A DNA stretch of 64,000 bases, taken from the IMG/VR virus record IMGVR_UViG_651053022_000007, positions 28,836 to 92,835 of that record; one strand, given 5' to 3'. The position numbers and the translations under genes are program-made. Source of the stretch: a virus. Its lineage: Duplodnaviria > Heunggongvirae > Uroviricota > Caudoviricetes. Positions within the stretch are counted from its first letter, which is position 1, and each line of letters starts with the position of its first letter. This document shows positions 28,658 to 61,441 of the stretch, piece after piece. Under the pieces are notes generated by a model. It had not been told where the DNA came from and did not search any database. It was given only the letters and a program-made list of their open reading frames with translations.

Positions 28658-30333
28658 TGTGATTGCCCACCCTGACCACTAACTGCATTCGCCATAGCTG
28701 ACAAAACACTCGGATCCGAAGTTTTAGCTTCGCTTAGCGTCTTGGCGCCCTGTGCCGCCGCCATCCCCATCGCCATCATTTGTTGCTGCTGTTGCTGCTG
28801 TGCCCGTTGCTGGCGAGCCTGCTCAACCTGTTCCTGCGGAACAATGACGGTTGGAGACACTCCGGACATATCAGCGAATGCATCGATCGCCTGATCAACG
28901 TTGAGTTTGTCGAGAGCTTCTGGTTTCGCTTGCGCAAGTTGACCAATGAAGTTGACCGTAGACGCCAGACTGGACAGGCCGATAGACTTCTGCGCCTGAG
29001 CCATGACGGAAATGTATTCGACCTTCAGGGGCATACCTTCCATCACGTCTGGCGGTGGCGGCAGCATGTTTTTACGCACCATCATTGAGAAAGCGCGGTC
29101 AATGAGAGGATTAAGACATTCGTCGTTCAGACGCTCCAGAACCGGCCCCAACATCAGAAGTTTTTCTTCTTTCATTTCGATCACTGCTTCAACAGGCATC
29201 GAGCGGGTATTGATGTTCTGCAACATCATGAACAGATCGACAAAGTAGGCGCTGTTAATGATTTGACGAGTGTCCTGAATGTCTGCTACCAGATCTGCTG
29301 TACTGGGGTTAACCAGATAAGCAGGCCTGAAGCCATCCTGACCAGTAATCTGATCGATATACGTGATGTCGCCAGGAAGAAGGGAGGCGCGCTGATTCTT
29401 GAGGGAAGTCGGAGCAACCATCGGCGGATTGGTGGCTTTATCAATCAACTGCGACTTGCGCTTCTGGAGAAGTTGCAATGCCTTAACAGGTCCAAGCGCC
29501 AGCATACCCGGGCATGATGATCCATAAACATCTTCGCCATTAACTTCCCAGCGCGGAGCCATAATTGGAAACTCATCAAATCCGGACTCACGCAACAACT
29601 TGTCGTTATCGCCACCAACCTCGTAATAAACCGATTTGAATGGCTTGTTCTTGCTATCCAGCTTCGATGTATCGCGGTCAATGTTCGGGTAAACCGAATG
29701 CATCACGTCAATCCACTTCTCGTAGGTGCCGCTTTCCCACATGCTTTTTACGGATTCGCTGACGTTATTTAGCCCGAACTCCTGAACAAGCTGACGAACA
29801 GTCATAGAGAACTTGCGAAAACAGGTGTCCACACTGCCACGAGGTGAGTTAGCCAGGTAGTAACTGCCTATCGGGAATGGCATTGTGCGAATGATGTCCT
29901 CGTCATCCTCCAGCACCGCCATTGCACCAGTGCTGTATGTGCCGAGGCTTCCGTATAACTGCGGAAGAGACTGGTAGAGATTCGACTTATTGAACATATC
30001 GTTCATGCGGTTCTGCACCGCCTCGAGCCACAACTTAACAGGACCATAATCCATCATTTCAGGATCTGGCGTAGCCAGGCGAAACCACGGACGCGCGGGG
30101 CTTGTGATGCCTGACATCATGCCGCTGGCGAGAGTGCGCGCCGCCATAGTCCCGGTCGAATCAATAATGCGTGTATTGCGTCGATCGTTACGGTTGACCT
30201 CAGAAGTCAGAAAGCGGGAACCACGCGGGTTGATGTAATCACTCAACTCGCGCCAGTGCGGCTCAAACGACTGACGCTCGCTTTCAAGTTGTGCGAACTG
30301 TTTGTTCAATCGCTCTTTAGTTGTTTCCGCCAT
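28654..30333 (-). CDS. portal protein
   Basis: 559 aa; position upstream of scaffold and capsid; C-terminal Gln/Ala-rich tail. Confidence 0.7.
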   Translation of the reverse strand: MAETTKERLNKQFAQLESERQSFEPHWRELSDYINPRGSRFLTSEVNRNDRRNTRIIDSTGTMAARTLASGMMSGITSPARPWFRLATPDPEMMDYGPVKLWLEAVQNRMNDMFNKSNLYQSLPQLYGSLGTYSTGAMAVLEDDEDIIRTMPFPIGSYYLANSPRGSVDTCFRKFSMTVRQLVQEFGLNNVSESVKSMWESGTYEKWIDVMHSVYPNIDRDTSKLDSKNKPFKSVYYEVGGDNDKLLRESGFDEFPIMAPRWEVNGEDVYGSSCPGMLALGPVKALQLLQKRKSQLIDKATNPPMVAPTSLKNQRASLLPGDITYIDQITGQDGFRPAYLVNPSTADLVADIQDTRQIINSAYFVDLFMMLQNINTRSMPVEAVIEMKEEKLLMLGPVLERLNDECLNPLIDRAFSMMVRKNMLPPPPDVMEGMPLKVEYISVMAQAQKSIGLSSLASTVNFIGQLAQAKPEALDKLNVDQAIDAFADMSGVSPTVIVPQEQVEQARQQRAQQQQQQQMMAMGMAAAQGAKTLSEAKTSDPSVLSAMANAVSGQGGQSQ

Positions 30334-30622
30334 TTCAATGACTCCGGTTACTGACCAAGCAGCGTTTTACCGCTGGTATTAGCGGTTGATGTGTCGCCCT
30401 GAGAACCGGTAAGCAGCGTAGAACTACGACCAGCAGCAGCGCGACGGCGACGTGTTTCTTCGTCGCGGGCATCAACAACGGCGACATCCTGCTCCTGTGG
30501 TGCTGCCTGAACTTCTGGTGTTGCAGGCACTGATGGTGAGCTACCCATGCACATATCAATGACTCCGTACGCAATTAAATTATTACCAATTTAACCACAT
30601 ATGTTTTATTTATCGTAGAAGG

Positions 30623-30659
30623 TTGACATTTAACGCGCTAATTATTACCTTTCAGGTAA
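30623..30659 (+). promoter_or_regulatory. putative promoter with operator-like palindrome
   Basis: TTGACA at 30623-30628 and TTACC-TTTCA-GGTAA at 30645-30659. Confidence 0.4.
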
Positions 30660-30981
30660 CTAAAGAGTTCATTCCGGTTACTAACCTGACTGGCTTGTCG
30701 TTAAATTGAACAGGTGGAGTGAGCTTTTATTTTGAGCAGTACGGCGTATGGCACATGCGCCGATAGCGGTCTGGATACGTTTAAGGGGCACCCTCCCTTG
30801 CTCGGGCAAACGAACCAGGTAGCCGGAATGTGCAAGTCGAGCGGTTTTATTCCGCGCACGGGGATTCACCATCCCGGCGATTCGGTGTGACGCCTCGGAA
30901 GAGACGAGGGTACAACGATGAGAGCATTTATGGAGCCGCGACAAAGTGTGGCGCCTTAACAGGCTAAGTGCTCTCAGCGTT

Positions 30982-31058
30982 GTGGCATTAGCTCAGTTGG
31001 ACAGAGCAACCGCCTTCTAAGCGGTTGGTCGCAGGTTCGAATCCTGCATGCCACGCCA
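30982..31058 (+). tRNA. tRNA-Arg (anticodon TCT)
   Basis: cloverleaf folded by hand: acceptor GTGGCAT/ATGCCAC, D-arm GCTCAGTTGGACAGAGC, anticodon loop CTTCTAA, T-loop TTCGAAT, CCA end. Confidence 0.85.
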
Positions 31059-31256
31059 GAATCACGCCTAAGGACCGTGATGCCAGAAGTTCCAGGGGGT
31101 TGGCGGTGATGGTTTCCCTTGAAGGACTATCACCGCCCTTTTTACAGCAGGACGCCATTGCGATGACTTCATGCTGTAAACCAGTACAGCCACGGAAGGC
31201 ATAACTCATTGCTTCCAGTTCGCCCGGTTCGCCGGGCATTTTTTTAAGGTGAGATT

Positions 31257-31613
31257 ATGAACGACCAGCAAATCGAAAAAGAAATCGTTGAGAAAGGCAA
31301 AACCGCTCCGCGAGTTACGCCTCAATATATCGAAAGCATCATTCTTGAAGAGCATTTCTTTACTGCTTATGACGGCATTCGTGCTGCCAATATGGGCGTT
31401 GGCGATTCATGGACAGCGCATAAATCTACAGACCTCCTGACTTTCTGCGTATTGGTACTGAAGAATGGCTTCACCGTCACCGGAGAGAGTGCCTGTGCAA
31501 GTCCGGAAAATTTTGATGCAGAAATTGGTCGGAAGATTGCCCGGCAGAATGCTGTAAACAAAATCTGGATGCTCGAAGGTTACTTGCTGAAGCAGAAGTT
31601 AAGCGAGCAATAA
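31257..31613 (+). CDS. conserved phage protein of unknown function
   Basis: 118-aa ORF opposite in orientation to the flanking terminase and portal genes. Confidence 0.45.
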   Translation: MNDQQIEKEIVEKGKTAPRVTPQYIESIILEEHFFTAYDGIRAANMGVGDSWTAHKSTDLLTFCVLVLKNGFTVTGESACASPENFDAEIGRKIARQNAVNKIWMLEGYLLKQKLSEQ

Positions 31614-31703
31614 CACCGTGGCATGTCACAAACAGCAAGCCTATGAACTGGCTTTGTTTTATCCTCACCAGAAGATATCAACGACATTATCCCCACCAGC
31701 GAA

Positions 31704-33179
31704 TTAAGCATAAGGGTCATAATCCGTTATGGCCCTTCCCTGCTGGCTTTGCTGTCCTGGTATATTTATGCGTTTCGAGACCGGGAAAGCAAACGTCAGC
31801 AGTAGCGCATCGCCTTTACCAGGAGAACGCCCAAGACGCTCTTTGATATCTTCCTTCGGTTCGATAACGATTTTACCGTCCACACGAACTTTGTACTCTG
31901 CCGCAGACAGGTCGTCCGCTGTTTCCTGGTCATCCAGCATGCCGCCCAGCCTCAGCCATGTCTTGCATGAGTTGAACATCTCCCCACGCTTGTTGAGCAT
32001 CTGCGGGTCAGTAGACGCGCCACCGAACGGAACAAGTTGCCATGTGCGCCCCCAACCATCACCGATTGACTTCAGACCGGTACCGTAACCGAAGTCGATG
32101 AACACCGCGTCAGCCTGATACTGGTCTTCAAAGTCAGCGATACGCTTCGCCATAATCAGATCGTCGGTAGTCTTGTTGCCAGTCCACAGCACCTTACTGT
32201 GTAGCCCCTGCCGCAGGTATATCACCGCGTCATCAACGCCTGAATATGCCGGGTCAACACCGATTATCACCGGAGCATGCGCCACCTGCGCAGCGGTTAC
32301 CACCCGTTTCATTGCCTCATCAGTAAGACCGGTAGGGATAAACTGCAATTCAGATGCATCAGGGAATATGCCGCGCACACGGATTTTAACGAAGTCGCTG
32401 TCTTCCCCGTAGTCATCGACCCATTTCTGCAACTGCTGTTTGTTAGTGCCTTCCACCGTCCGGCTGTCAATCTGCGCAGTTTTCCAGCGGTGTTTATATT
32501 TGCGGAAACATTCGCGGAAACGCCCGGTGTTACGTGTAGGGTTTCCGAACGCCACCCAGATAATCTCAGTGTCTTCGTCCGTAAGCGCACCCTCAGCAAC
32601 TTCCCACACCAGATCCGCAATGTTCGACGCTTCATCGAATACCACGATGATGCGTTTGCGCTCGTTGTGTAGTCCGGCGAATGCCTCAGTGTTGTGCTCA
32701 GACCAGGGGATTGCGTCAGCTCGCCACCGCTTGTCGTGCCCAGGATCATTGCTGTACATCGCGGTAGCGGTACAGGTAAACCAGTCTTTCGTGATAGCAA
32801 GGTTCGACCACTTGATAATTTCCGGCCAGGTCTTCGTTCGTAGCTGGTTGTCGGTGTTGGCGGTCACCACGACCTTACAATCCTCGCAAGTGGACATGCC
32901 CCAGTTGATCAGCATTGAGATGAATGCGGATTTACCAATACCGTGACCAGAAGCACGTGCCAGCATAAGCGGCTGATAGCGCGTCTCTGGATTCTGCAGG
33001 TGATCACGTATCTCTCGGAACGCATCAGCCTGCCACTGACGTGGACCGGTGGCATGTGCCAGTTCAGTCCCCTCTTCCCCCCACGGGAACGCATAGATGG
33101 CATAGCCAAGCGGATCGTGAGTGAACCCTGCAATATCCTCGATCAACTGCTCTTCAGGAGATAACGCTGTATCTGTCAC
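31704..33179 (-). CDS. terminase large subunit
   Basis: 491 aa; ATPase Walker A-like GHGIGKS, nuclease-domain acidic residues. Confidence 0.85.
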   Translation of the reverse strand: MTDTALSPEEQLIEDIAGFTHDPLGYAIYAFPWGEEGTELAHATGPRQWQADAFREIRDHLQNPETRYQPLMLARASGHGIGKSAFISMLINWGMSTCEDCKVVVTANTDNQLRTKTWPEIIKWSNLAITKDWFTCTATAMYSNDPGHDKRWRADAIPWSEHNTEAFAGLHNERKRIIVVFDEASNIADLVWEVAEGALTDEDTEIIWVAFGNPTRNTGRFRECFRKYKHRWKTAQIDSRTVEGTNKQQLQKWVDDYGEDSDFVKIRVRGIFPDASELQFIPTGLTDEAMKRVVTAAQVAHAPVIIGVDPAYSGVDDAVIYLRQGLHSKVLWTGNKTTDDLIMAKRIADFEDQYQADAVFIDFGYGTGLKSIGDGWGRTWQLVPFGGASTDPQMLNKRGEMFNSCKTWLRLGGMLDDQETADDLSAAEYKVRVDGKIVIEPKEDIKERLGRSPGKGDALLLTFAFPVSKRINIPGQQSQQGRAITDYDPYA

Positions 33180-33772
33180 TGATTACCATCCTGACGTTCT
33201 TTGAGTCGCTTCCTGGCTGCTGCTATGCGATCAGCAATTGTCACATTCACATTAACATCCAGGCGTTCTTTGAATGCGTTGACGTCGACGTGCTTACCAA
33301 TCAGTTCGAGGTTCTTCACCTTGTCAGGCCATTTAATTTTTTTGAGGATTGTCTCTATCGAATCCTCGTTCATGTTCATGATGGTCGATGACAGATCAAA
33401 GCCACTAAGCGTAGTGCGCCAGATTTTCGGCCACTCACGGATTGGTTTAAGGCTCCCATCGTCGTTGAGGATGTCGATCACGTCCATCTGGTCGATCTCC
33501 ACCAGGCGCATGAGAACGTAATCAGCACTGACGCGCATTCGTTTGTTGCGCTCCTCCATCAACTCGGCAATCCGTTTTTGAATGCGTTCATCGCGCATCA
33601 TGACACTGGCTTTAACTGCCGCTGTATTTGGAGAGAATCCTGCGTTAATCGCTGCCTGAGTCTGGTTTTCAGGCGTTTTGATGTATGACTGGCAATAAGC
33701 CTCCTGCATTGCTGTTAGTGGCTTAAATTGCGTTGATTTGCGTTTATAGGTTTTAGGTTCAGCAGGCATCAT
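33176..33772 (-). CDS. terminase small subunit
   Basis: ORF 33176..33850 with probable internal start MMPAEPK; overlaps terminase large start. Confidence 0.55.
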   Translation of the reverse strand: MMPAEPKTYKRKSTQFKPLTAMQEAYCQSYIKTPENQTQAAINAGFSPNTAAVKASVMMRDERIQKRIAELMEERNKRMRVSADYVLMRLVEIDQMDVIDILNDDGSLKPIREWPKIWRTTLSGFDLSSTIMNMNEDSIETILKKIKWPDKVKNLELIGKHVDVNAFKERLDVNVNVTIADRIAAARKRLKERQDGNQ

Positions 33773-33890
33773 AACCACCGTGGTAATAGTTACCGTTGTG
33801 GTAATAGTACCATGCAAAATAAAGCCGCCATAGTTGGCGGCAGTATTCAAAACCCATCAAATTCATCATGCATAATCTACTCGTGACATG

Positions 33891-34232
33891 TCACACTATT
33901 AATTTCGTTTCATGCCAGCCTTTAGTCACCCAGCATTGCGAGTCACCATTACACGGGCATGAATTAACTGGAACTCTCTCGCCGCACTTACCGCAACATT
34001 TTCTGCTGATCGATTTTATACGCCCGCGCACGCGTGCATCATCCTGGCGGATCAGTAACGCTATATACTCACCAAATTCGTAAGGCGCACGCCCGGGGCG
34101 ACGCGTGGCACAGTTACGCTCCAGCATTTCAATTTCCTGAGCATCAAGCACAATTTCCAGCTTACGCACACCAGATGCAGCTTGTCTGGCTCTCTGAGCG
34201 GCTTTGCGCTCTGCTGCTGATTTAGCCATCAA
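33891..34232 (-). CDS. hypothetical Cys-rich phage protein
   Basis: 113 aa with CCGKCGE..C.C motif. Confidence 0.35.
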   Translation of the reverse strand: MMAKSAAERKAAQRARQAASGVRKLEIVLDAQEIEMLERNCATRRPGRAPYEFGEYIALLIRQDDARVRGRIKSISRKCCGKCGERVPVNSCPCNGDSQCWVTKGWHETKLIV

Positions 34233-34503
34233 TATTTACCTTTATCGCGAACACATTTACCGGTTTATCGCCGATGTGCGGATGTGTGATTGTCTTGATT
34301 TCATATCCGTCATACGGAACATCAATTCTACGGCTGGGATCGTCGCGCTTCGGATATCCCTTTGTGATAATCAGGCGGTCATATTCCCGGAACATAATTC
34401 GCTTATTCCAGTAGTCATTACACAGGCGATACTCTTCCGTTTTATCTCCGCGAATCATGGCATCGAAGTATTCACCTTTGACGGCAAGTTGCAGGTTAGC
34501 CAT
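34222..34503 (-). CDS. ASCH/PUA-like domain protein
   Basis: start MANLQLAVKGEYFDAMIRGDKTEEYR within ORF 34222..34524. Confidence 0.4.
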   Translation of the reverse strand: MANLQLAVKGEYFDAMIRGDKTEEYRLCNDYWNKRIMFREYDRLIITKGYPKRDDPSRRIDVPYDGYEIKTITHPHIGDKPVNVFAIKVNIDG

Positions 34504-34763
34504 TACCGCACCTCCAGTCTCCATACCGCCTGACCAATCCGGCTGGCATGGTTATCTTTAGATACTGTTCCGTCTTTAGCAATCTCCATAAGAATTTTGC
34601 GCAAATCTTCCGAACGCCATTCTTCATCAGGAAATTCCTTCTCCATTGCCAACCGCAAATTCCAGGTTGCCATCCTGAATGGATATTCCCCGCCGAGAGC
34701 TTTATCTTGCAGGGCAGCCCGGGAACGCATCACCTGCAAAACCTTCTCTTTTACATCCATCAT
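34503..34763 (-). CDS. hypothetical phage protein
   Basis: 86-aa ORF. Confidence 0.35.
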   Translation of the reverse strand: MMDVKEKVLQVMRSRAALQDKALGGEYPFRMATWNLRLAMEKEFPDEEWRSEDLRKILMEIAKDGTVSKDNHASRIGQAVWRLEVR

Positions 34764-35719
34764 TTCGCCTCCTGCGGCGGTTCCGGTAGCGGAATCCAGT
34801 GAGTTGCTTGCTCAATACCATTACCCGGCTTAATCGTTGCATCTCCGCGCCGAAAGGTGCTTCCGGTATAGCGTGCGGAGCATATTAGCGGCTCAACCAG
34901 ATCACTATCGAAATTCACCGAAATAAGTACGTTCTGATTCTTTTTCGGCATTCGCTCACTACAGCTTATCCAACCATCCGGAGTTACCGGAGTTGGTCCA
35001 TCGAATTCGGGCATGTCAGGACCTTTTCTGATAGCTTTAGCCAGCTCCAGCGGGTCATCGTAAAGCCAGTCGCCAGTTTGTGGGTGATTTGCTTCTGCAA
35101 GCTGCGCAGCCCATTCAAGACCATCTTTTTGACCTTGGAGATAATCAAGCGGCAACTCTTCATGATTACTTACAGGTTCGGCACCATGAAGCATGGCGCC
35201 GCTCCGCTCTATGCCATCCAGCGCGATTCGCAGTGCCTGAATTGTGGTAGAGCTATCGTTTGGGGCTATTCCATATCGCTCGAATACAGCTAAATGGTTG
35301 CGCATAATCTCAGGCGTAAGCTCTTTGTAAGCATAAGCAAGAGGCTCTGATGCATTATCCAGCACAACCGACGCAGGCGCGGCAGCATAAACAGGAATAA
35401 CGTCCGCTTGCTCTTTATTGCTTTCATCCGTTAAAGCCCAGAATAATTTCCCGGCCGGATGTTTGAAAATATAAGCAACTGGATCTGCTTCCAGCGATGC
35501 CAGCGCAATCCGTGCCAGTTCCATTTGTTCACCACGGGTAAGCCCGTTTTCAAGCGGGTTTTTAATGAACAATTCAATACGTTCTTTGGTAATAGTGGTC
35601 ATGACCCACTGCTTCCCCTGAAAGTCTGTAACGCCTTTTTTCACGTAGCGATATCGCCATGCCACTGGTTTTGCCTGCCCTGCCTTTTCATGCCCTTCCT
35701 GATAATTAATCTCGCTCAT
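34760..35719 (-). CDS. DUF551-like domain phage protein
   Basis: 319 aa; C-terminal DGWISCSERMPKK...VLIS segment resembles the DUF551 family. Confidence 0.5.
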   Translation of the reverse strand: MSEINYQEGHEKAGQAKPVAWRYRYVKKGVTDFQGKQWVMTTITKERIELFIKNPLENGLTRGEQMELARIALASLEADPVAYIFKHPAGKLFWALTDESNKEQADVIPVYAAAPASVVLDNASEPLAYAYKELTPEIMRNHLAVFERYGIAPNDSSTTIQALRIALDGIERSGAMLHGAEPVSNHEELPLDYLQGQKDGLEWAAQLAEANHPQTGDWLYDDPLELAKAIRKGPDMPEFDGPTPVTPDGWISCSERMPKKNQNVLISVNFDSDLVEPLICSARYTGSTFRRGDATIKPGNGIEQATHWIPLPEPPQEAK

Positions 35720-35751
35720 TCATCGCCCCACTCATCACAATATGCTTCGAC

Positions 35752-35884
35752 CGGTAGGCATGATAAGACGCGTCAGCGTCGCATCAGGCATCTGCGCACG
35801 GTGTCGGATGCGGCGCGAGCGCCTTATCCGACCTACGGTTCAGGCCTGTAGGCATGATAAGACGCGTCAGCGTCGCATCAGGCA
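35752..35884. repeat. two REP-like palindromic units
   Basis: GGCATGATAAGACGCGTCAGCGTCGCATCAGGCA occurs twice; resembles E. coli chromosomal REP elements. Confidence 0.55.
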
Positions 35885-37080
35885 ATTGATGTCTTAGGGC
35901 CGGAGAAACGCAGACGGCGTACCACACAGGAAAAGATCGCAATTGTTCAGCAGAGCTTTGAACCGGGGATGACGGTCTCCCTCGTTGCCCGGCAACATGG
36001 TGTAGCAGCCAGCCAGTTATTTCTCTGGCGTAAGCAATACCAGGAAGGAAGTCTTACTGCTGTCGCCGCCGGAGAACAGGTTGTTCCTGCCTCTGAACTT
36101 GCTGCCGCCATGAAGCAGATTAAAGAACTCCAGCGTCTGCTCGGCAAAAAAACGATGGAAAATGAACTCCTTAAAGAAGCCGTTGAATATGGGCGAGCAA
36201 AAAAGTGGATAGCGCACGCGCCCTTATTGCCCGGCCTGCTCGGCAAGAAAACGATGGAAAATGAACTCCTCAAAGAAGCCGTTGAATATGGACGGGCAAA
36301 AAAGTGGATAGCGCACGCGCCCTTATTGCCCGGGGATGGGGAGTAAGCTTAGTCAGCCGTTGTCTCCGGGTGTCGCGTGCGCAGTTGCACGTCATTCTCA
36401 GACGAACCGATGACTGGATGGATGGCCGCCGCAGTCGTCACACTGATGATACGGATGTGCTTCTCCGTATACACCATGTTATCGGAGAGCTGCCCACGTA
36501 TGGTTATCGTCGGGTATGGGCGCTGCTTCGCAGACAGGCAGAACTTGATGGTATGCCTGCGATCAATGCCAAACGTGCCGATGACTGGAAGGACGGCCGC
36601 CGCAGCCGTCACACGGATGATACGGATGTGCTTCGCCGTATACACCATGTTATCGGAGAGCTACCCACATATGGTTATCGTCGGGTATGGGCGCTGCTTC
36701 GCAGACAAACAGAACTTGATGGTATGCCTGCGATCAATGCCAAACGTGTTTACCGGATCATGCGCCAGAATGCGCTGTTGCTTGAGCGAAAACCTGCTGT
36801 ACCGCCATCGAAACGGGCACATACCGGCAGAGTGGCTGTGAAAGAAAGTAATCAGCGATGGTGCTCTGACGGGTTTGAGTTCCGCTGTGATAACGGAGAA
36901 AAACTGCGGGTCACGTTCGCGCTGGACTGCTGTGACCGTGAGGCACTGCACTGGGCGGTCACAACGGGTGGCTTCGACAGTGAAACAGTACAGGACGTCA
37001 TGCTGGGAGCAGTGGAACGCCGCTTTGGCAGCGAGCTTCCGGCGTCTCCAGTGGAGTGGCTGACGGATAATGGTTCATGC
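35885..37080 (+). mobile_element. IS2 remnant (5'-truncated orfA, 3'-truncated orfB, internal tandem duplications)
   Basis: orfA from codon 2 ([55 protein letters not shown]) and orfB to ..WLTDNGSC; 98-bp duplication at 36137-36333 and 170-bp duplication at 36407-36747. Confidence 0.8.
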
Positions 37081-37697: not shown

Positions 37698-37716
37698 CGG
37701 TTGGATCACCTCCTTA
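37698..37716 (+). rRNA. 16S rRNA 3'-terminal 19-nt fragment (start of an rrn spacer fragment)
   Basis: CGGTTGGATCACCTCCTTA, followed by spacer with tRNA-Ile and tRNA-Ala. Confidence 0.6.
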
Positions 37717-37784
37717 CCTTAAAGAAGCGTACTTTGAAGTGCTCACACAGATTGTCTGATGAAAATGAGCAGTAAAACCTCTAC

Positions 37785-37861
<77 letters not shown>

Positions 37862-37903
37862 AATTTGCACCGCAAATTTGAAGAGGTTTTAACTACATGT
37901 TAT

Positions 37904-37979
37904 GGGGCTATAGCTCAGCTGGGAGAGCGCCTGCTTTGCACGCAGGAGGTCTGCGGTTCGATCCCGCATAGCTCCACCA
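37904..37979 (+). tRNA. tRNA-Ala (anticodon TGC)
   Basis: GGGGCTATAGCTCAGCTGGGAGAGCGCCTGCTTTGCACGCAGGAGGTCTGCGGTTCGATCCCGCATAGCTCCACCA. Confidence 0.85.
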
Positions 37980-37994
37980 TCTCTGTAGTGATTA

Positions 37995-39193
37995 AATAAA
38001 AAAACGATATTGATTTCATCAAACTGCTCATCGTCCATTAACACTCCCGCATGCGTCAGCGCATCCAGCGGTGCTTTCAGGATATTGTCCAGGTCGCGAC
38101 GACGCTTATCCGGTGGCTCTGCAATCACCTTTATCGCCAGCCTTCCGGACAGGTTTAATTTCAGCCGCTGCTGGCGAACAATTAGCGCCACATCACGGCG
38201 ATAACGCTTTCCGGCCTCCGAGATGAAATACGTATTGCCATGACGTCGCCAGTAGGTATTCACCGTCGGCGGGTAAGGCAAAACAAATTCTATGCGTTCA
38301 GTCATACCTCCCAGGCCATGACCAATGATGTGATGCGGATCATCTGCCTGATTACCGCACGTCATGCATTTCTGCGTTTTTACCCAGCGCGTGTATACAG
38401 GCATCTCTTCCCGTTGTGGTTTCTGGCGCTGGAGATACTGAGCCGGAGACTCCGGATCAACGGCGATGCTTACTAACGTCTTTTCCTGGAGTGGGGGCTG
38501 TTGCTGGTGGACGTGAAGTGGCAGCGCAATATTTTTTGTGCGCTGCTTCAGTATGCTGGTGGCAGTCTGTTCTCCCGGTACGATGTCACTCTCACGGTAT
38601 ACGGAGCGGATTTTTTCCACCGGTAATCCCAGTGAACGACACAATACAGACTCCGGAAGCACATCAGCCACCTGATTGCAGACCGCCCACCAGGATAATT
38701 CGGCCAGCGATAACTCCCTCTCCTGCGTACCGCTGATTGCGTGACGGATGACGTCAATCATCCATGCTGACAAGTTTTGGTGAGCAAGTTGCTCAAGTGA
38801 TTCTGAGGTCTGGTCACACAACTGGTTGTCGCAGTGCCAGCACAACACCATTGCGCCGGTACCATAACGGTGAATGACGGTTTCACTGTGGTGATAATCA
38901 CCGTGTGGCCACTGGCAGGATTTAATATGGCGCAACAGCCAGTCAGACAGTGCACCAGCGCCGCCAGCAGCACGAATCACACGCTCATTGCTGAAAAATG
39001 GCAGTAATGATTTATCCTCCGCCAGCGGCTGGCGAACGGCAGGGACGACTCCGGATGGCAGGCCGCACATGCTTTTCGGTTCCGGCTCCACCAGCACTCG
39101 AGGATTATGAAATATCTGTATGGATTCACGGCCCGGCTTAAGGACCACCAGCCCAAGCTCAGGCACCAGAACAGGTCTAAGTAATACCCGCAC
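37995..39193 (-). pseudogene. YdfU-like (DUF968) :: RusA in-frame fusion remnant
   Basis: relative to intact copy at 61442..62860, about 62 codons at the YdfU/RusA boundary are missing (HGLGGM|TERIEFV) and rusA ends at EINIV; ORF 37889..39193 then reads through antisense tRNA-Ala. Confidence 0.6.
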
Positions 39194-39194
39194 G

Positions 39195-39467
39195 TTACCT
39201 CCAGATCCGTTGCTGGAAAGTGCGGGACGGACGTGGTGGGCGTTCGGAATAAGGCAGCCTGACAGAGATTATCCAGTGCCGATAGTCGAGACTGAGAGCT
39301 TTCTTAACCTCGAACCCGCGCCTGCGGTAAGAATGAATCAGCCATTCGGCCTGTTCTTCAGTACATGGTGGGTGTTGGTACCAGTCGGTTTTAAATGCGT
39401 GTGAACGCCGCTCATGCCGGATGGCAAGGTCGGTATCAGAATTGTGAAATTTGGTTTTGTGCGCCAT
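39195..39467 (-). CDS. nin-region hypothetical protein
   Basis: 90-aa ORF; C-terminal 60 aa conserved upstream of the second ydfU-like copy. Confidence 0.35.
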   Translation of the reverse strand: MAHKTKFHNSDTDLAIRHERRSHAFKTDWYQHPPCTEEQAEWLIHSYRRRGFEVKKALSLDYRHWIISVRLPYSERPPRPSRTFQQRIWR

Positions 39468-39634: not shown

Positions 39635-39790
39635 TTACTCCTCAGGTTCGTAAGCTGTGAAGACAGCGACCTCCGTCTGGCCGGTTCGGATTCGTACCTC
39701 GCAGAGGTCTTTCCTCGTTACCAGTGCCGTCACTATGACGGTTAAACAGATGACGATCAGGGCGATTAACATCGCCTTTTGCTGCTTCAT
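39635..39790 (-). CDS. hokD: Hok/Gef-family type I toxin
   Basis: 51 aa MKQQKAMLIALIVICLTVIVTALVTRKDLCEVRIRTGQTEVAVFTAYEPEE; not in supplied track. Confidence 0.75.
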   Translation of the reverse strand: MKQQKAMLIALIVICLTVIVTALVTRKDLCEVRIRTGQTEVAVFTAYEPEE

Positions 39791-39807
39791 AGCCTGCTTC
39801 TCCTTGA

Positions 39808-40127
39808 CCTTTCGGTCCGTAAGAGGCTAATCTCTATGTGTCGCATAGATATGGCCTCAGATTAATGTTAAGCGTCTTGCAGGACGCGTAATGTTAACTG
39901 GGGCTTTTCTCTATCTGCCTTTTGGTGTTCATGCCTGAGACAGATAGCCTCAAGCACCCGCACCCTTGCCTTTCGGCACGTAAGAGGCTAACCTACATTT
40001 GTGAGACATAGATTGGGCCTCAGATTAATGTTAAGCGTCTTGCAGGACGCGAAATGTTAACTGGGGCTTTTCTCTATCTGCCTTTCAGTGTTCATGCCTG
40101 AGACAGATAGCCTCAAGCACCCGCAGC
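39808..40127. repeat. tandem direct repeat, 2 x about 160 bp, immediately upstream of hok
   Basis: units 39808-39968 and 39969-40127, a few percent diverged, each with internal palindromes. Confidence 0.6.
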
Positions 40128-40189: not shown

Positions 40190-40876
40190 TTACTCCTTCT
40201 CTTCTTTTCCGTAGTGGAGTTGGCCAATTTTGATAAGAGGGCGTCCCTGAGATTTGCGGTGTAGATTGGTATCGCGCAGAGAATACACACAGCCACAATA
40301 TTCCTGCTGATAGAATTTTTCGCGCTTGCTGATTTCAATCATACGGGACGAGCCGCCCTGCTTGCGCCAGTTATAATCCCAGTACACCATACCCGGATAA
40401 TGCGCAACAGCTCGCCGCCCACACTCGTTAACCTGCTGCATATTTTTCCAGCGTGAAATGCCCAGTGAACTGCTGATCACACTGAAACCATTTTCAGCAG
40501 CGTACAACGCTGTCCGCTCAAAACGCATGTCAAAACACATGGTACAACGGATCCCCCTCTCAGGCTCCCATTCCATTCCTTTGGCACGTTCAAACCAGTT
40601 GTCGGTGTCGTAATCAGCATCGATAAACGGCACGCCGTGTTGTTCAGCAAAGCGAATATTTTCATCCTTACGAATTAAATACTCTTTCTGAGGATGAATG
40701 TTCGGGTTGTAGAAAAAGATGGTGTAGTCGATTCCCGAGGCCTGAAGCGCCTCCATCACTTCACCGGAACATGGAGCACAGCAAGAGTGCAGTAGTAGTT
40801 TGTTTGCCCCGTTTGGGAGCTCCAATTTAGGCCGTTTGAAATCAGCAATAGTCATAAATATTTTTATTGGGGTCAT
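40190..40876 (-). CDS. queH: epoxyqueuosine reductase QueH-like (DUF208)
   Basis: 228 aa; [11 protein letters not shown] motif and conserved Cys pattern. Confidence 0.65.
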
Positions 40877-41029
40877 GAAAATAGCACAGAGTGTAGCATC
40901 AGAGCAGGGCTATCGGGAATATATGTCTAAATCTGGTAATATCTGGTTTTGACGCAAAGCGGACAACCACGCTGGCTCTACCCTGCGCCATGAAAATGTC
41001 AATTCACATCTGAACTAATGCTCTTTAAT

Positions 41030-41428
41030 CTAGTAACGTCTAAAATACCTAACATTTCCTTGATAAAATGCCAGTACACGCTGCATAGCTTCGCTCTTCC
41101 GGCACTCGCCGTCTGGTAACGACCAGATAAGGTCCGGATCAACCACTGCAGGTTTCTTCACCTTTGCCCTTGAGAGTTTTTTGCGAGCATTTTGCCAGTC
41201 CTTACGCGCCTGTTCAGACGGGAATAACCCGTAACCAGAGTTGTATACATCGCCACTGGCAACCAGCTCTCTGGCGAGAACACTCATCAGATATCTTGTC
41301 GCACCTGTCTTGGCTTCCAGTTGCCGCAACGTCTCGCGACCGCTCAGACGTACAAGTTCAACAACCTGCCCTTTAATTTTTTCCCGCTCTTCTTGTGTAA
41401 ATACTTTTGCCATAAGCGCCTCCGGCAA
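41030..41428 (-). CDS. hypothetical phage protein
   Basis: 132-aa ORF. Confidence 0.4.
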   Translation of the reverse strand: MPEALMAKVFTQEEREKIKGQVVELVRLSGRETLRQLEAKTGATRYLMSVLARELVASGDVYNSGYGLFPSEQARKDWQNARKKLSRAKVKKPAVVDPDLIWSLPDGECRKSEAMQRVLAFYQGNVRYFRRY

Positions 41429-42199
41429 TCACTTTTCCGATACAACACGGCGGGAAGAATCAGTAATCTGTCGAACAATATCCCGGTGCTTGTTCAGCTC
41501 CCGCAGCGCGGCGCAGACTCGCTCCCACTTCTGAACATCACTTTTCGCCCTGCGCAGCGCCAGGTTTGCCCTGCGAAGGGACGGAAAAATCAGCTCATCT
41601 GCTTGCGTTTCGGTAAACGATGGCAACGGCTGCACAATGTCCGCCACAGTTTCTGTTTTAATTTCTTCCTGTGTTGCGGCTTCCCGGACTGGTAACGCAG
41701 CACCTGCTGGCTGAGGAAAGGCCTTACCATCACTTTCCGTTACCAGCGCGGCTTTCGGCTCTGCTGGTAAATTATCGCCCGGCATGCAGTAACGAAATTT
41801 ACCGTTCTGATTAACGCGTGCCAGCCGCCCCGTTGCGGTTACCACCGCCAGCGTGGAAGCAACCTTGCGAGTACTGACACCGAACTTACCCGCCAGTTCC
41901 TCACACGTTTTAGCCCCATCCTGACCGATAAACTCAATCATCATGTCTGCGGTAACTTTTTGTTCGACCTCCCCGGTCAGCATATCCTGTGCTTCAGATT
42001 TTACTGGCCGCTCTTCGGTTACCCGGGATTCACCTTCGCCAGCCAGAAACCAGGTGTGACCAGTTTTATCAACGACGCCTTTTCTTTTGAGTTCCCACAG
42101 CTCGTTGACAGCCTCTTCACGACTGATTCCAAGGCGAGCTGCCACCACATGTGAAGAGGCTTTTTTCAGTGCTTTCAGTGCGTCAGATACGGTTTCCAT
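41429..42199 (-). CDS. DUF1627-like phage protein
   Basis: 256 aa; N-terminal HTH-like segment; downstream of DnaC-like gene. Confidence 0.45.
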   Translation of the reverse strand: METVSDALKALKKASSHVVAARLGISREEAVNELWELKRKGVVDKTGHTWFLAGEGESRVTEERPVKSEAQDMLTGEVEQKVTADMMIEFIGQDGAKTCEELAGKFGVSTRKVASTLAVVTATGRLARVNQNGKFRYCMPGDNLPAEPKAALVTESDGKAFPQPAGAALPVREAATQEEIKTETVADIVQPLPSFTETQADELIFPSLRRANLALRRAKSDVQKWERVCAALRELNKHRDIVRQITDSSRRVVSEK

Positions 42200-42220: not shown

Positions 42221-42967
42221 TTACTTCACAACCCTCATATTGCTGACATTTGGACGCCAGCTATCCCAGTTAAACGTCACCCATCGACCACCGTTCATGG
42301 TCATGCGGTCCATAATCCTCTCACCAAGAAGCGTACTCATTGCGGCATGATTCAGGTTTGTTAACATCCCGACACTGCACAGTGATGCTGTCCGGCGATC
42401 AATTATCTGGTGCAATACCACCTGCTCGTTTTTCGTCTCCCGCTGAACGCCTATTTCATCCAGGACCAGCAAATCAACCCCGCAAAGCTCCTGTAAAAAT
42501 TTTTCCCCGGATTTGCCGTTGTCGTAGCTGTCATGCAACACGCTCATGACGTCAGACACGGTGACGATAATCACGCTGCGCCCCTTCACCATCAGCCGGT
42601 TGCCCATCGCCGCTGCAAGGTGATTTTTCCCGGTGCCGGTTTTACCGCTGAACACAAAATTCGTGCACCCGGTCATCAGTTCGTCAGCTATGGATTTGGC
42701 CTGGCTCAGCGCGTATTTTTGCCCGTCGTTCTGCACCTGATAATTTGCAAACGAGCATTTGCTGTGCAGAGGCTGGATGCCCGAACGATTCAGGATTTTT
42801 TCCACCCGCAACTGGCGATTCTGGCGGTTAATCTCCTCGCTGCGTTTTCGTCCTTCAGCAAGTTGCCATTCCCGCCACTCCTCCACCGTCCGGTACGGTG
42901 GAACCGACCCCTGTGGTGCAAGTCTGCGAATACGTTCAAGAACCCCAACTGCCGCAATGTTTTTCAT
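42221..42967 (-). CDS. DnaC-like replication ATPase (helicase loader)
   Basis: 248 aa; Walker A GKTGTGKNHLAAA and Walker B LLVLDEIG. Confidence 0.7.
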   Translation of the reverse strand: MKNIAAVGVLERIRRLAPQGSVPPYRTVEEWREWQLAEGRKRSEEINRQNRQLRVEKILNRSGIQPLHSKCSFANYQVQNDGQKYALSQAKSIADELMTGCTNFVFSGKTGTGKNHLAAAMGNRLMVKGRSVIIVTVSDVMSVLHDSYDNGKSGEKFLQELCGVDLLVLDEIGVQRETKNEQVVLHQIIDRRTASLCSVGMLTNLNHAAMSTLLGERIMDRMTMNGGRWVTFNWDSWRPNVSNMRVVK

Positions 42968-45109: not shown

Positions 45110-45281
45110 GAATCGAGGGCAGGGCGGGGTATACCGGGTTTATCCTCGCAGACAAGAAATTTATAAGCGCAGTCCTGAGCAGCCGGATAATGTTTGAATC
45201 GAGGGCAGGGCGGGGTATGCCAGGTTTATCCTCGCAGACAATAAATTTATAAGCGCAGTCCTGAGCAGCCGGATAATGTTT
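45110..45281. repeat. tandem direct repeat, 2 x 86 bp
   Basis: units 45110-45195 and 45196-45281 with 3-4 mismatches, just upstream of the 43024..45093 start. Confidence 0.5.
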
Positions 45282-50436: not shown

Positions 50437-53400
50437 TTGGAGCGCGATATGAGTCTCTCTTTCAGTGAAGCAAAATTAGAACAAGCGATCATTGAACTGT
50501 TACAGGATCAGGGATATCAACACCTGATCGGCGATAATGTCCCACGTTCGAGCCTCGATCAGGTCATTATCGAAGACGATCTCCGTCATTATTTAGCGGC
50601 ACGCTACCAGCCTGATGGCATTACTGAAGAAGAGATTCAGCGACTGATCAAACAGTTCACCACGCTTCCGGCCTCCGATCTTTATGAAAGCAACAAAACA
50701 TTTTGTCGCTGGCTGGCAAATGGTTTTCTGTTCAAACGCGACGATCGGCAACAAAAAGATCTCTATATTGAATTGCTCGACACCCGGCATCTACCTGCCG
50801 CACTGCGCCAGATATTTGACGCCGAAGATGTCCCGTTGCAACAGGCGGCGGAACTCCCGCCTTCCTATATGAATCCGCCGCTTAACCGGATTAAGATTGT
50901 TAACCAGCTTAAAATCTCCGGCAAAGATAATCAGACTCGTATTCCTGACGGCATTCTCTATATCAATGGTCTGCCATTGGTCGTCTTTGAATTTAAAAGT
51001 GCGGTGCGCGAGCAGGAAGCCAGTATTGGCGATGCCTGGAAGCAGCTCTGTAAACGCTATCGCCGGGATATTCCGCAACTGTTTATCTACAACGCGCTCT
51101 GCATTATTAGCGATGGCGTAAATAACCGGATGGGCAACCTGTTTGCGCCCTATGAATACTTTTACTCATGGCGCAAAGTCACCGGTAATGAAAACCGTGA
51201 ACAGGACGGAATTCCATCATTGCACTCAATGATTCAGGGGCTGTTTCATCCGGTACGTCTGCTGGATGTGATTAAAAACTTTATCTGCTTCCCGGATAAA
51301 GCCAAGCACGAAGTAAAAATTTGCTGCCGATATCCGCAGTACTATGCCGCCCGCAAACTCTATTACAGCATCAAGCAAGCGCGTAAACCTTTCGGTAGCG
51401 GTAAAGGCGGCACTTACTTTGGCGCAACGGGCTGTGGTAAAAGTTACACCATGCAATTTTTAACGCGTCTTTTGATGAAGAGCGTGGAGTTTGCCAGCCC
51501 GACCATTGTTTTGATCACCGACCGCACCGATCTGGACGATCAGCTTTCTGCGCAAATGTGCAACGCCAAAAATTACATTGGCGACGACACCATCGTTCCC
51601 GTTACCAGCCGTGAAGATTTGCGTAATCAACTGGCAGGACGCAATAGTGGCGGAGTCTTTCTGACAACGATCCATAAATTCACCGAAGACACCGAACTCC
51701 TTTCTGAACGCAACAATATCATTTGCATCTCGGACGAAGCACATCGTAGCCAGGTTAACCTCGACCAGAAAGTCATCGTTGATAAAGAAAGCGGAAAAGT
51801 GCGCAAAACGTATGGCTTTGCGAAATACCTGCACGATTCACTGCCAAACGCCACCTATGTTGGCTTTACCGGCACACCGATTGACGCGACGCTCGATGTC
51901 TTCGGTGAGGTGATCGACAGTTACACCATGACCGAATCCGTTCAGGATGAAATCACTGTACGCATCGTGTACGAAGGCCGTGCGGCTAAAGTGATCCTGG
52001 ACTCCAGCAAACTGGAAGAAGTCGAAAAGTATTACGAAGAGTGCGCAAACGCAGGCACCAATGAGTGGCAAATCGACGAAAGCAAAAAAGCCACCGCCAC
52101 CATGAATGCGGTTCTGGGTGATGAAGATCGGTTAAAAGCCCTCGCAGAAGATTTTGCCAAACATTATGAAAAACGCGTAGCCGAAGGTTCCACCGTAAAA
52201 GGCAAAGCCATGTTTGTTTGTGCCAGCCGTGAAATTGCCTGGGATTTCTACCGTCAGCTTAAAGCTATTCGCCCTGCCTGGTTTGAAGTGAAGCAAGCAC
52301 CCGATGGCGTCGTCCTGACGGAACAGGAGCAGAAAGAGTTACCGCCTTCAGAAATGGTGAAGATGGTCATGACGCGCGGTAAAGATGACGACGAGGCGCT
52401 TTATGATTTACTGGGCACAAAAGAATATCGCAAAGAGCTGGATAAGCAGTTCAAAAACGCTAAATCGAATTTCAAAATTGCCATTGTTGTTGATATGTGG
52501 CTGACCGGTTTCGACGTCCCGGAACTGGATACCATCTATATTGATAAACCCTTACAAAAACATAATCTTATCCAGACTATTTCTCGCGTTAACCGTAAAC
52601 TGGAAGGCAAAAGTAAAGGGTTAGTGGTGGACTACATCGGCATTAAAAGTCAGATGAACCAGGCACTGGCAATGTATTCCCGCATTGATGCCACCAACTT
52701 TGAAGATATTCAGCAATCGGTAATAGAAGTTAAAAACCATCTCGATTTGTTGGGGCAAGTCTTTTACGAATTTGACAGTCGGGATTATTTTAGTGGTGAG
52801 CCACAAGCGCAATTATCCTGCCTCAACCGCGCGGCGGAATTTGTTCTGCGTACCCAGAAAGTTGAACGTCGTTTTATGGGACTGGTTAAACGCATGAAAG
52901 CCGCCTACGACGTCTGCTGCGGCAGCGAAGCATTATCACAGACAGAACGTGACTATATTCACTATTATCTTGCTGTTCGTTCAATTGTTTTCAAACTGAC
53001 GAAAGGTGACGCACCGGATGTTACCCAGATGAATGCACGCGTTCGTGAAATGATTGCAGAAGCGTTAAAAGCTGATGGCGTAGAAGAAATTTATTTTCTT
53101 GGCGATAAAAAAGCGGAATCCATCGATATTTTTGACGAAGATTATCTGGCGCGAATTAACAAGATCAAACTTCCGGCAACGAAGATCCAGTTATTACAAA
53201 AATTACTGGAAAAAGCGATCAGCGACTTCAAGAAAGTGAACCAGTTGCAAGGGATTAACTTCACCCGCCGCTTCCAGGCGATTATAGATCGTTATAATGA
53301 GCGGCGAGAAGATGATGTACTCAACGGTGAAGAATTCGATACATTCAGTCAGGAAATGACCGATATTATCTATGATATTAAAACCGAAATGGGCACCTGG

Positions 53401-53598
53401 GCCGATTTAGGCATTGATATTGAAGAAAAAGCCTTTTTCGACATTCTTGCTCATATGCGCGATAAATATCAGTTCACCTATGACGATGAAAAAATGCTGT
53501 CACTGGCAAAAGAGATGAAAAGCGTGGTTGACAACACATCTAAATATCCTGACTGGAGTAAACGCGATGATATTAAAGCGAAACTGAAATTTCCCGAT
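50437..53598 (+). CDS. hsdR: type I restriction enzyme R subunit (HsdR), 3' end replaced by tRNA gene
   Basis: nuclease motif [10 protein letters not shown], helicase motif I GATGCGKS, motif II DEAHRSQ; ORF 50437..53715 reads through tRNA-Arg. Confidence 0.7.
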
Positions 53599-53675
53599 GC
53601 ATCCGTAGCTCAGCTGGATAGAGTACTCGGCTACGAACCGAGCGGTCGGAGGTTCGAATCCTCCCGGATGCACCA
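53599..53675 (+). tRNA. tRNA-Arg (anticodon ACG)
   Basis: GCATCCGTAGCTCAGCTGGATAGAGTACTCGGCTACGAACCGAGCGGTCGGAGGTTCGAATCCTCCCGGATGCACCA. Confidence 0.85.
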
Positions 53676-53711
53676 TCTCTTACTTGATATGGCTTTAGTG
53701 GCGGTATCAAG

Positions 53712-53951
53712 GTGAGTCAGTATCCGGAGTTGATAGCGCAGTTTTCAAGCGGTAATCAAACACGTATAAAACAAGGATTAATCGCAAAAGCACCACTTGA
53801 AGGTTGGCATTATGGCACTAAAGAAATCGTTAAAAAATTCCACATGTATCATCGTGTTGCGATTGAATATAGTGGCGGAATTTACGATATTGATAATTTA
53901 AGGAGGGCACACCTCATTTGCATGATGAAATTTATTACAGGAGATAGTTAA
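53712..53951 (+). pseudogene. HNH-type DNase bacteriocin/toxin, C-terminal domain fragment
   Basis: 79 aa; FHMYHRVAIEYSGGIYDIDNLRRAH resembles colicin/pyocin DNase core; no N-terminal delivery domain. Confidence 0.45.
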
Positions 53952-54982: not shown

Positions 54983-55276
54983 CGAAAACCTGCTGTACCG
55001 CCATCGAAACGGGCACATACAGGCAGAGTGGCCGTGAAAGAAAGCAATCAGCGATGGTGCTCTGACGGGTTCGAGTTCTGCTGTGATAACGGAGAGAGAC
55101 TGCGTGTCACGTTCGCGCTGGACTGCTGTGATCGTGAGGCACTGCACTGGGCGGTGACTACCGGCGGCTTCAACAGTGAAACAGTACAGGACGTCATGCT
55201 GGGAGCGGTGGAACGCCGCTTCGGCAACGATCTTCCATCGTCTCCAGTGGAGTGGCTGACGGATAATGGTTCATGC
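54983..55276 (+). mobile_element. IS2 orfB internal fragment
   Basis: ...[45 protein letters not shown]...WLTDNGSC, ending at the same codon as the copy at 37080. Confidence 0.7.
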
Positions 55277-55669
55277 ACCATAAAGATTGTTTACGATGAA
55301 AATAATATTATTGTTGCCATAACCAAAGATGCCTCCACACTTAACCCTGAAGGTTATAGCGTCGTTGAGATTCCTGATATTACCGCCAACCGGCGTGCTG
55401 ACGACTCAGGTAAATGGATGTTTAAAGATGGCGCAGTCATTAAACGTGTATATACCGAAGAAGAGTTGCGCCTACAGACGGAAAACCAGAAAAAAATATT
55501 ATTACAGCAGGCCAGAGAAAAAACGCAGTTCTGGCAAACACAGCTTACTTTGGGGATTATCACTGATTCAGACAGACAGCAACTGATGAACTGGATGCGA
55601 TACGTGCAACAGGTTGAGACAACTGATACCTCGGTTCTTCCTGTAACATTCCCGGAACCACCAGAATAA
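55277..55669 (+). pseudogene. tail fibre assembly protein fragment fused behind IS2 fragment
   Basis: ...[28 protein letters not shown]...[11 protein letters not shown]. Confidence 0.55.
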
Positions 55670-57854: not shown

Positions 57855-58134
57855 GGAGTTTACTCACATCTGACAAAATCAATATAAACAGCCCCTCCGG
57901 AGAGGGGCTGGAGAGTGGCGCTATGTGCCATTGCATGGTGCCGGGTGCCTCCCGGTGAATTCAGTACCAGCACCTGAATCCGCGATTATCCCATATACCT
58001 ACTCGCTGATTGCCCCTCCGCACAGGGGGATTCACCATGCCAGTTTCTTTTAACAAACTCCCCGCAAACCAGACAACAATCAACCGCCTGAATTGTGAAG
58101 TATTTAAAAATTTCTCCCGCTAACTGATACCCGG

Positions 58135-58221
58135 CTAACAGTCTGGCGTTTTCTTTTTCAGCAACGGGAAAGCAACAACCACCACACCCGCCACCAGCAC
58201 ACCGTCAGCCAGCACTGACAT
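58135..58221 (-). CDS. 28-aa hydrophobic peptide, start overlapping upstream stop (TAATG)
   Basis: MSVLADGVLVAGVVVVAFPLLKKKTPDC. Confidence 0.2.
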   Translation of the reverse strand: MSVLADGVLVAGVVVVAFPLLKKKTPDC

Positions 58222-58568
58222 TATCCGGCTGCCCGAAGTTCATCCATACCACAGGTCCTGGCTATTCTGTTGTACTCCTGAACAAGAGTAAATAATTCTG
58301 AATTAGCCACCATGAACTCATCGCAAACCCTCTGTATAGCATCACTATTCAGAATAATAACGTCTCTTCCCGAAAGACGATCAGGAGTACAGAACAAAAC
58401 TGTCAAACGGCTGAAGGCCTTTGCTCGTGCTGCATTGACTATATCAATACGCTGCCTAAGGATGAAACACCCCGACGCCTCATCAATATTCACTCTACCC
58501 ACACCATATGAATGATAAATATTTAATGCTGAAAAAACCATTAGACCGTATAACAAACACTCAATCAA
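58221..58568 (-). CDS. hypothetical protein, AT-rich cargo downstream of tRNA pair
   Basis: 115-aa ORF in low-GC DNA. Confidence 0.35.
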   Translation of the reverse strand: MIECLLYGLMVFSALNIYHSYGVGRVNIDEASGCFILRQRIDIVNAARAKAFSRLTVLFCTPDRLSGRDVIILNSDAIQRVCDEFMVANSELFTLVQEYNRIARTCGMDELRAAG

Positions 58569-58681
58569 TACTTAACAGAACTTTTATTTTTGACAAACAT
58601 AAAATATTTTCAACAATATCCTGAGCCAGGTATATTTCAGTATAAGGCTCTGCCGGAAGGAATCTGGAAGAATGAATATAG

Positions 58682-58755
58682 CGCGCTGTACTGGATTCGA
58701 ACCAGTGACCGATTGCTTAGAAGGCAATTGCTCTGTCCGGCTGAGCTAACAACGC
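58682..58755 (-). tRNA. tRNA-Arg (anticodon TCT), no encoded CCA
   Basis: reverse complement GCGTTGTTAGCTCAGCCGGACAGAGCAATTGCCTTCTAAGCAATCGGTCACTGGTTCGAATCCAGTACAGCGCG folds as cloverleaf. Confidence 0.7.
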
Positions 58756-58855
58756 TGAATACCGATAATGGACCGCCATCGGGGACCCGCCCCCGCACCA
58801 ACAACCCTGTTATCGTGTCGTCTGCTCTTCCTGATAAGCTAATGGCGGTTTGTGA

Positions 58856-61427: not shown

Positions 61428-61441
61428 TTTTTGACCTGCTC

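Follow-up and report, generated by a model that had tools for sequence, protein, structure and literature searches.

Results

The queH locus and its neighbourhood

The window, that is, the whole 64,000-nucleotide stretch of DNA that was analysed, carries on its minus strand an open reading frame (ORF) at 40190..40876 that encodes 228 amino acids from its first ATG and contains the motif HSCCAPCS. The sequence-only reading of this DNA had placed a DUF208/QueH-type ORF with a CCAPCS motif exactly there, and the Pfam and PDB matches described below agree with it. The first seven codons are not conserved across homologues and include a stop codon in one allele (locus L005), and M8 is the start used in homologues and in RefSeq; because of this, the real queH coding sequence is probably 40190..40855 (minus strand; 221 amino acids), a feature documented by Pfam QueH, PDB entry 7LC5, seven cysteines and allele comparison. 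At the nucleotide level the gene is 100% identical to Escherichia coli alleles annotated as QueH. RefSeq already uses the name QueH for the identical proteins, and the identity of the gene is therefore not new.

All of the genes around queH are read from the minus strand, in the order DnaC-like, DUF1627, DUF977, queH, sok/hok, small ORF and DUF968-truncated RusA. Upstream lies a replication module with a DnaC/IstB-like ATPase gene (42221-42967) and a DUF1627 gene (41429-42199), both recognized by Pfam, followed by the constant upstream neighbour of queH, a DUF977 gene (41030..41428; Pfam DUF977; phrog_142, named ‘Ren-like exclusion protein' in PHROGs) and an intergenic leader (40856..41029) defined by alignment of upstream regions. 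Downstream of queH are the sok/leader region (39802-40125), a 163-bp tandem repeat in two copies with two Rfam sok matches, the hok toxin gene (39635-39790; Pfam HOK_GEF), a small conserved ORF (39195-39467) at the downstream edge of the nin-like module, and a DUF968 gene fused to a truncated RusA (37889-39193; Pfam DUF968 and RusA; phrog_1212). The DUF1627/DnaC-like order is the same in L005 and in an E. albertii locus (L094), and intact prophages share the module order of the window around queH. For example, a prophage of the O104:H4 strain 2011C-3493 runs from integrase, exonuclease, dicB, repressors, a helix-turn-helix protein and DUF977 to QueH, and then through hokD, DUF968, RusA, Q, DNA methyltransferase and tRNAs to lysis genes; its helix-turn-helix protein occupies the position of the replication gene and is annotated as O-like in phage HannyBb. 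The description of the surroundings as lambdoid nin-region remnants was thus roughly right, as the gene order fits that of intact lambdoid prophages; the prophage in the window is a remnant that has neither immunity region nor early promoters.

A consensus scan for promoters and terminators returned none convincing for queH and none on the minus strand in the leader. The leader harbours the block CTCTGATGCTACAC at ~40891-40904, ~35 nt upstream of M8, which is conserved in the alleles compared, including the most diverged, except for one T-to-C substitution in L006; it is a possible candidate for an extended −10 element (TGn-TACACT). Rfam gave no riboswitch or other match in the leader at E values up to 1, and the fold of the leader is not unusual (z of −1.26). 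By default, queH would be read within the early rightward transcript after induction or infection.

Integrity of the window

Taken as a whole, the window has the appearance of a mosaic and not of a natural contig. It contains four tandem duplications with copies 90-96% identical: 99 bp at 36137-36333 and 171 bp at 36407-36748, both in frame in the IS2 orfA/orfB region, 163 bp in the sok/hok leader (39802-40125) and 86 bp at 45110-45281. The three that were checked are absent from natural E. coli copies; the sok/hok leader, for instance, has one copy in natural genomes and two in the window. This pattern suggests corrupted, misassembled or synthetic DNA. Two junctions were found in 0 of 5,426 complete E. 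coli genomes. At ~43035 the DnaC-like gene directly adjoins a truncated exonuclease gene of a prophage, read from the same strand, and the immunity region is missing between the two. At 37698-38005 a piece of rRNA-operon spacer of 307 bp, which carries tRNA-Ile and tRNA-Ala at 37785-37979, is fused to the truncated rusA and cuts off the nin-like module. Moreover, of positions 30000-54000, at most 26% is present in one place in any complete E. coli genome.

Several ORFs of the window are chimeric. A type I restriction R-subunit ORF (50437-53715) that runs into a tRNA-Arg gene (53599-53675) looks like a chimeric join, and so does the fusion of a tail-fibre assembly domain with an rve integrase core in another ORF (55028-55669). 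A second lambdoid nin/late-control module (57880-62860) carries an STnc100 sRNA, tRNA-Arg, tRNA-Met, an N6/N4 DNA methyltransferase, antiterminator Q and DUF968, with no queH at this module. Positions 1-35720 hold a separate prophage with a helix-turn-helix regulator, YqaJ exonuclease, RecT, MT-A70 methylase, integrase (5548-6804), an endosialidase-chaperone tailspike, a Bro-N protein, a GP7 capsid protein and terminase, as well as isrK and C4 antisense RNAs at 11991-12176; positions 30000-35756 are 100% identical to E. coli genomes. The DNA around queH (~38.0-43.0 kb) matches natural prophages, and because queH itself is 100% identical to natural alleles, the finding of queH is independent of the integrity of the window.

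Sequence and predicted structure of the protein

The ORF protein matches the Pfam QueH profile (PF02677) over positions 1-174 of 175 (E value of 1.1e-65; 221.5 bits, against a curated cut-off of 23.5 bits); no model in the NCBIfam library matched. In the PDB it matches Thermotoga maritima QueH (7LC5; E value of 8e-22). Alignment to this characterised QueH, which the sequence-only reading had proposed, places the cysteines of the query on T. maritima C9, C10, D13, the CxxC pair and the CGC pair, so that the ligand positions correspond. Loss of the conserved Fe-S ligands, which that reading had named as the outcome speaking against its assignment, is not the case: all seven ligand positions (C32, C33, C36, C111, C114, C194 and C196, in the numbering of the 228-residue ORF) are cysteines. 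The set CCxPC(/D)...CxxC...CxC is reported to bind a [4Fe-4S] cluster and an adjacent iron.

The query was also aligned with 150 representatives from a library of 1.8 billion proteins clustered at 50% identity. For every ligand position, at least 96% of the diverse representatives with coverage there have a cysteine. At position 36, 117 of 120 diverse family members have cysteine and 3 have aspartate; ‘CCAPC' is thus the norm, and D13 of T. maritima the minority form. The PDB contains T. maritima QueH mutants C9S and D13N at these same positions. Further near-invariant residues of the family, N57, N59, R110, R118, S141, K144, Q191 and G195, are present in the query as well.

An AlphaFold model of the protein, of moderate confidence (pLDDT of 75; pTM of 0.75), had T. 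maritima QueH as all of its top five Foldseek matches (7LC7, 7LC5 and 9DEU among the best), with target-normalised TM scores of 0.80-0.81, and this predicted model superposes on T. maritima QueH with an rmsd of ~3 Å over 180 columns. The more distant structural matches are enzymes with the adenine-nucleotide-alpha-hydrolase fold, such as TtuA and LarE. Profile, ligands and predicted fold, the in silico tests of QueH membership that were run, all point to an intact member of the family.

Distribution of queH in E. coli and its phages

A megablast search with queH alone found the gene in 995 of 5,426 complete E. coli genomes (18%), leaving 4,431 that lack it. The match covers at least 80% of queH in 985 of the carriers and is at least 99% identical in 707, with one or two copies per carrier genome, and every record among the matches listed is annotated ‘epoxyqueuosine reductase QueH'. 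Carriers are spread across unrelated lineages, including ST131 (EC958 and JJ2434), O104:H4, O157:H7 and O111:H11. The statement of the sequence-only reading that E. coli normally uses QueG for this step fits the counts, as queG is present in 5,426 of 5,426 genomes compared with 995 for queH.

Every E. coli and E. albertii queH locus whose surroundings were examined lies in a prophage; a normal chromosomal copy, taken by the sequence-only reading as the sign of a host origin, was found at none of them. Among GTDB species representatives, only E. albertii shares the DUF1627-DUF977-queH-hok context. Furthermore, the complete 45-kb Escherichia phage HannyBb encodes the protein at the same place (95% amino-acid identity), and 188 viral contigs of IMG/VR encode it, the 80 retrieved being all 100% identical in protein. 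Prophages, a complete phage and viral contigs thus bear out the placement of queH on phage DNA.

A tblastn search of a phage collection gave 25 matches, among which HannyBb was the only credible phage of those assessed. The ‘Bacteriophage sp.' record MT835504.1 (L093), the one virome scaffold examined, was rejected as a QueH phage and assigned to bacterial DNA, because ABC transporters, argininosuccinate lyase and aspartate-semialdehyde dehydrogenase surround its queH homologue; the ‘Acinetobacter phage MD-2021a' records (328-378 kb) with QueH matches we likewise take to be bacterial DNA. Phage resources leave queH unannotated: the HannyBb gene is ‘hypothetical', and in PHROGs the family is phrog_3217, of ‘unknown function'. 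As its profile starts at residue M41, phrog_3217 does not include the CCAPC ligand motif; in phage genomes, queH seems to be called consistently too short at its N-terminal end. A literature search combining QueH, DUF208 or epoxyqueuosine reductase with phage or prophage returned no paper on a phage-borne QueH.

Origin and selection

Outside the prophage lineage, the nearest relatives of the protein (80-92% identity) are encoded by chromosomal queH genes of other Enterobacterales: Scandinavium (92%), Kluyvera (91%), Enterobacter (88-90%), Erwinia (86%), Providencia and Proteus (84-86%), and Photorhabdus, Serratia and Dickeya (~80%). In Erwinia, queH has purL on one side and, on the other, a histidine-kinase/sigma-54 response-regulator pair, after which come glnB-, hmp- and glyA-type genes; Providencia has tmcA next to queH; and the neighbours in Scandinavium, Kluyvera and Enterobacter are dehydrogenase, DHDPS-family, hydrolase and GGDEF genes. 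Since at the loci examined the relatives sit among housekeeping or metabolic genes, the phage queH may be regarded as a captured housekeeping-type gene, which temperate phages of a lambdoid (Rac/Qin-like) lineage in E. coli and E. albertii would have taken from an Enterobacterales chromosome.

Among five diverged prophage alleles, dN/dS is 0.03-0.09 with pairwise dS of 0.02-0.45, and all 86 of the 86 copies examined are intact. The prophage alleles are under strong purifying selection. These data bear on whether queH could be a chance passenger, a copy that is redundant, decaying or silent and serves neither phage nor host, as might be supposed from the universal presence of QueG in E. coli, the lack of a clear queH promoter in the consensus scan and the degraded state of the prophage in the window. 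However, such low dN/dS over dS of up to 0.45, together with 86 of 86 intact copies, counts out a decaying passenger; moreover, queH is fixed in position while the adjoining cargo turns over in at least 14 variants (see below), and it has reached 18% of complete genomes across unrelated lineages that include ST131, O104:H4, O157:H7 and O111. As a whole, the passenger explanation therefore keeps a small chance.

A variable slot downstream of queH

The 300 nt upstream and 1,200 nt downstream of queH were clustered across 86 queH loci. The upstream sequences form one cluster in 79 of the 86, whereas the downstream sequences fall into at least 14 unrelated classes. Downstream cargoes include hok/sok (35 loci), a type II restriction-modification pair of cytosine methyltransferase and restriction enzyme (20 loci), a 130-residue lipoprotein (8 loci), two variants of RosmerTA (RmrT/RmrA; 6 and 1 loci), Kiwa (KwaA/KwaB; 1 locus), a ParE-like toxin-antitoxin pair (1 locus) and IS insertions (several loci), with examples drawn from loci L012, L017, L078, L006 and L008; in the window, the slot holds hok/sok. 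As the upstream side is constant and the downstream side turns over, queH forms the constant left edge of a hot spot for defence and toxin-antitoxin genes, located between the replication module and DUF968-RusA-Q. PADLOC recognized KwaA/KwaB, RmrT/RmrA and the type II methyltransferase and restriction enzyme among the neighbours in other loci, and none of its defence-system models matched QueH. Because the downstream partner of queH is not fixed, no obligate system can be defined.

The position of queH raises the idea that it serves phage-phage or phage-host conflict, either by setting the oQ/Q state of anticodons against tRNA-targeting toxins and defences, or in concert with the adjacent cargo. 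It borders, constantly, a slot that holds hok/sok, type II restriction-modification, RosmerTA, Kiwa and a ParE-like pair, and phage infection of Shewanella affects both Q levels and queG. Against this, PADLOC has no match for QueH, the protein is an unmodified housekeeping-type enzyme, and the link with the defence cargo is one of position alone. We regard a role in conflict as improbable on this balance, with a slim chance of being correct.

Partner genes and the remaining alternatives

The E. coli proteins QueA, Tgt and QueG and the phage 9g proteins DpdA, FolE, QueD, QueC and QueE were used as tblastn queries. Nothing below an E value of 0.01 was found in the window, L001, L002, L004, L005 and L006 (four prophage loci and the whole of HannyBb), in a BLAST search that a very distant DpdA could escape. 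The Pfam scans covered 38 ORFs of the window and detected no que or TGT family besides QueH, and the annotations of the HannyBb genome and of the O104:H4 prophage region that was examined list none of the preQ0 genes (FolE, QueD, QueE and QueC). The search for dpd or other que genes that the sequence-only reading had called for thus came back empty in the window, related prophage loci and HannyBb, and its remark that the gene sits alone holds, in that tblastn and Pfam scans showed no other queuosine or 7-deazaguanine gene nearby.

The same reading had offered, besides tRNA, a role in 7-deazaguanine modification of DNA. Such a role, for example a Q-like base in phage DNA that guards against restriction, is unsupported, as no tgt or dpdA, queA or preQ0 genes lie alongside queH. 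Phages such as 9g do modify their DNA via the preQ0 pathway and DpdA (PMC6884629; 9g gene cluster), and queH adjoins slots with restriction-modification and other defence genes. However, with no transglycosylase or other partner found (no homologue of DpdA/Tgt, FolE, QueD, QueE, QueC or QueA by tblastn in the window, the four loci and HannyBb), the DNA-modification route would have to work without an essential component. Hutinet et al. (2019; PMC6884629), who surveyed viral 7-deazaguanine genes, found QueA, QueG and QueH absent in the DNA-modifying viruses analysed. The phage protein, moreover, is 80-92% identical to chromosomal QueH of the tRNA pathway. We know of no oQ- or Q-type base in DNA. 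Modification of phage DNA by QueH is accordingly very improbable.

Least credible of all is that queH belongs to the ordinary gene set of the host chromosome and only happens to have prophage debris next to it: it is chromosomal in other Enterobacterales, but phage genes flank it in every E. coli and E. albertii locus with surroundings examined, it is part of the complete phage genome of HannyBb, and it is missing from 4,431 of 5,426 E. coli genomes.

Discussion

A probable role of the phage-borne QueH in host tRNA

The reading we favour, and hold to be likely, is that the gene encodes a functional, cobalamin-independent QueH, captured by phages, that would convert oQ34 to Q34 in host tRNA independently of B12. 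It builds on the family assignment, the intact ligands, the fold, the phage location, the purifying selection and the lack of partner genes, and given these a tRNA role would be the natural one. The host would supply oQ34-tRNA through preQ1 synthesis, Tgt and QueA; in an infected or lysogenic cell, the phage QueH, if active in E. coli, would then turn epoxyqueuosine (oQ34) into queuosine (Q34) in the tRNAs for Asp, Asn, His and Tyr. On paper this single gene is enough, as there is no second que or dpd gene alongside it. E. coli has no de novo cobalamin synthesis and QueG needs cobalamin, so a queH prophage would free the completion of Q from B12. In the gut E. coli imports B12, and there queH may be redundant. 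How oQ and Q differ in their physiological effects is poorly defined. A queH gene alone reportedly complements an E. coli queG mutant, and the enzyme is said to use a [4Fe-4S] cluster and an adjacent iron.

The literature fits this division of labour: the QueG step is described as cobamide-dependent in E. coli and Salmonella in a statement of PMC4646009 that cites Frey (1988), and QueH as a cobamide-independent alternative to QueG (PMC6461909). In addition, according to a 2026 preprint, both queG expression and the Q/oQ ratio go up when phages infect Shewanella; since it describes regulation upon infection, the oQ-to-Q step is a plausible point of phage-host interplay.

As to how the phage might profit, an idea based on codon bias was rejected. 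In HannyBb, NAU makes up 0.567 of the codons for Asp, Asn, His and Tyr, with the same value in structural and early genes, and queH itself has 0.46; none of this is distinctive, and a benefit for phage translation is thus not evident. A bolder version of our reading, which we think unlikely though worth stating, is that this is the first phage-encoded tRNA enzyme of the queuosine branch, acting by lysogenic conversion to free Q-tRNA from cobalamin in ~18% of E. coli (ST131 and O104:H4 among them) and, by setting the oQ/Q state of four tRNAs, altering NAU/NAC decoding, with consequences for biofilm and virulence or for phage-phage conflict. If a setting of oQ and Q were indeed at work, it would account for the fixed place of queH at the edge of a hot spot of prophage defence genes.

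The locus is a modest new case of a phage-carried QueH and no new kind of system. If prophage QueH is active, however, the Q status of many clinical E. coli lineages would not depend on B12 as it does in K-12, which would bear on the generalization of K-12 results on Q, oQ and queG. It would then also serve as a backup for the B12-dependent QueG in about one-fifth of E. coli genomes, and a tRNA-modification enzyme would join the functions donated by temperate phages.

Comparison with known systems

The phage protein and QueG (YjeS), which is cobalamin- and [4Fe-4S]-dependent, share the same predicted reaction, from oQ34 to Q34 in tRNA. Yet the two belong to unrelated families, and tblastn with QueG finds nothing in the window; QueG needs cobalamin and is core (5,426 of 5,426 genomes), whereas queH is accessory (995 of 5,426).

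The DpdA clusters of the phage 9g type likewise consist of phage-encoded genes from the queuosine/preQ0 pathway. Those genes act before or at base insertion, and on DNA, whereas the prophage has the last, tRNA-specific step alone and no transglycosylase. Like the morons of lambdoid phages, queH is a single host-derived gene of a non-phage type in an accessory slot between the replication and Q/late modules; it is, however, far more constant than the cargo that adjoins it. The consensus scan showed no promoter or terminator of its own, and the conserved TGn-TACACT-like block upstream is a possible candidate for an extended −10 element.

With T. maritima QueH, the phage protein shares a full-length family match, the same predicted fold and seven filled ligand positions at ~30% identity, and it differs in having Cys36 where the crystallised enzyme has Asp13. 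What sets it apart from the known QueH is its location, in the nin-like region of a temperate phage, beside a defence and toxin-antitoxin hot spot, and in a host that already has QueG.
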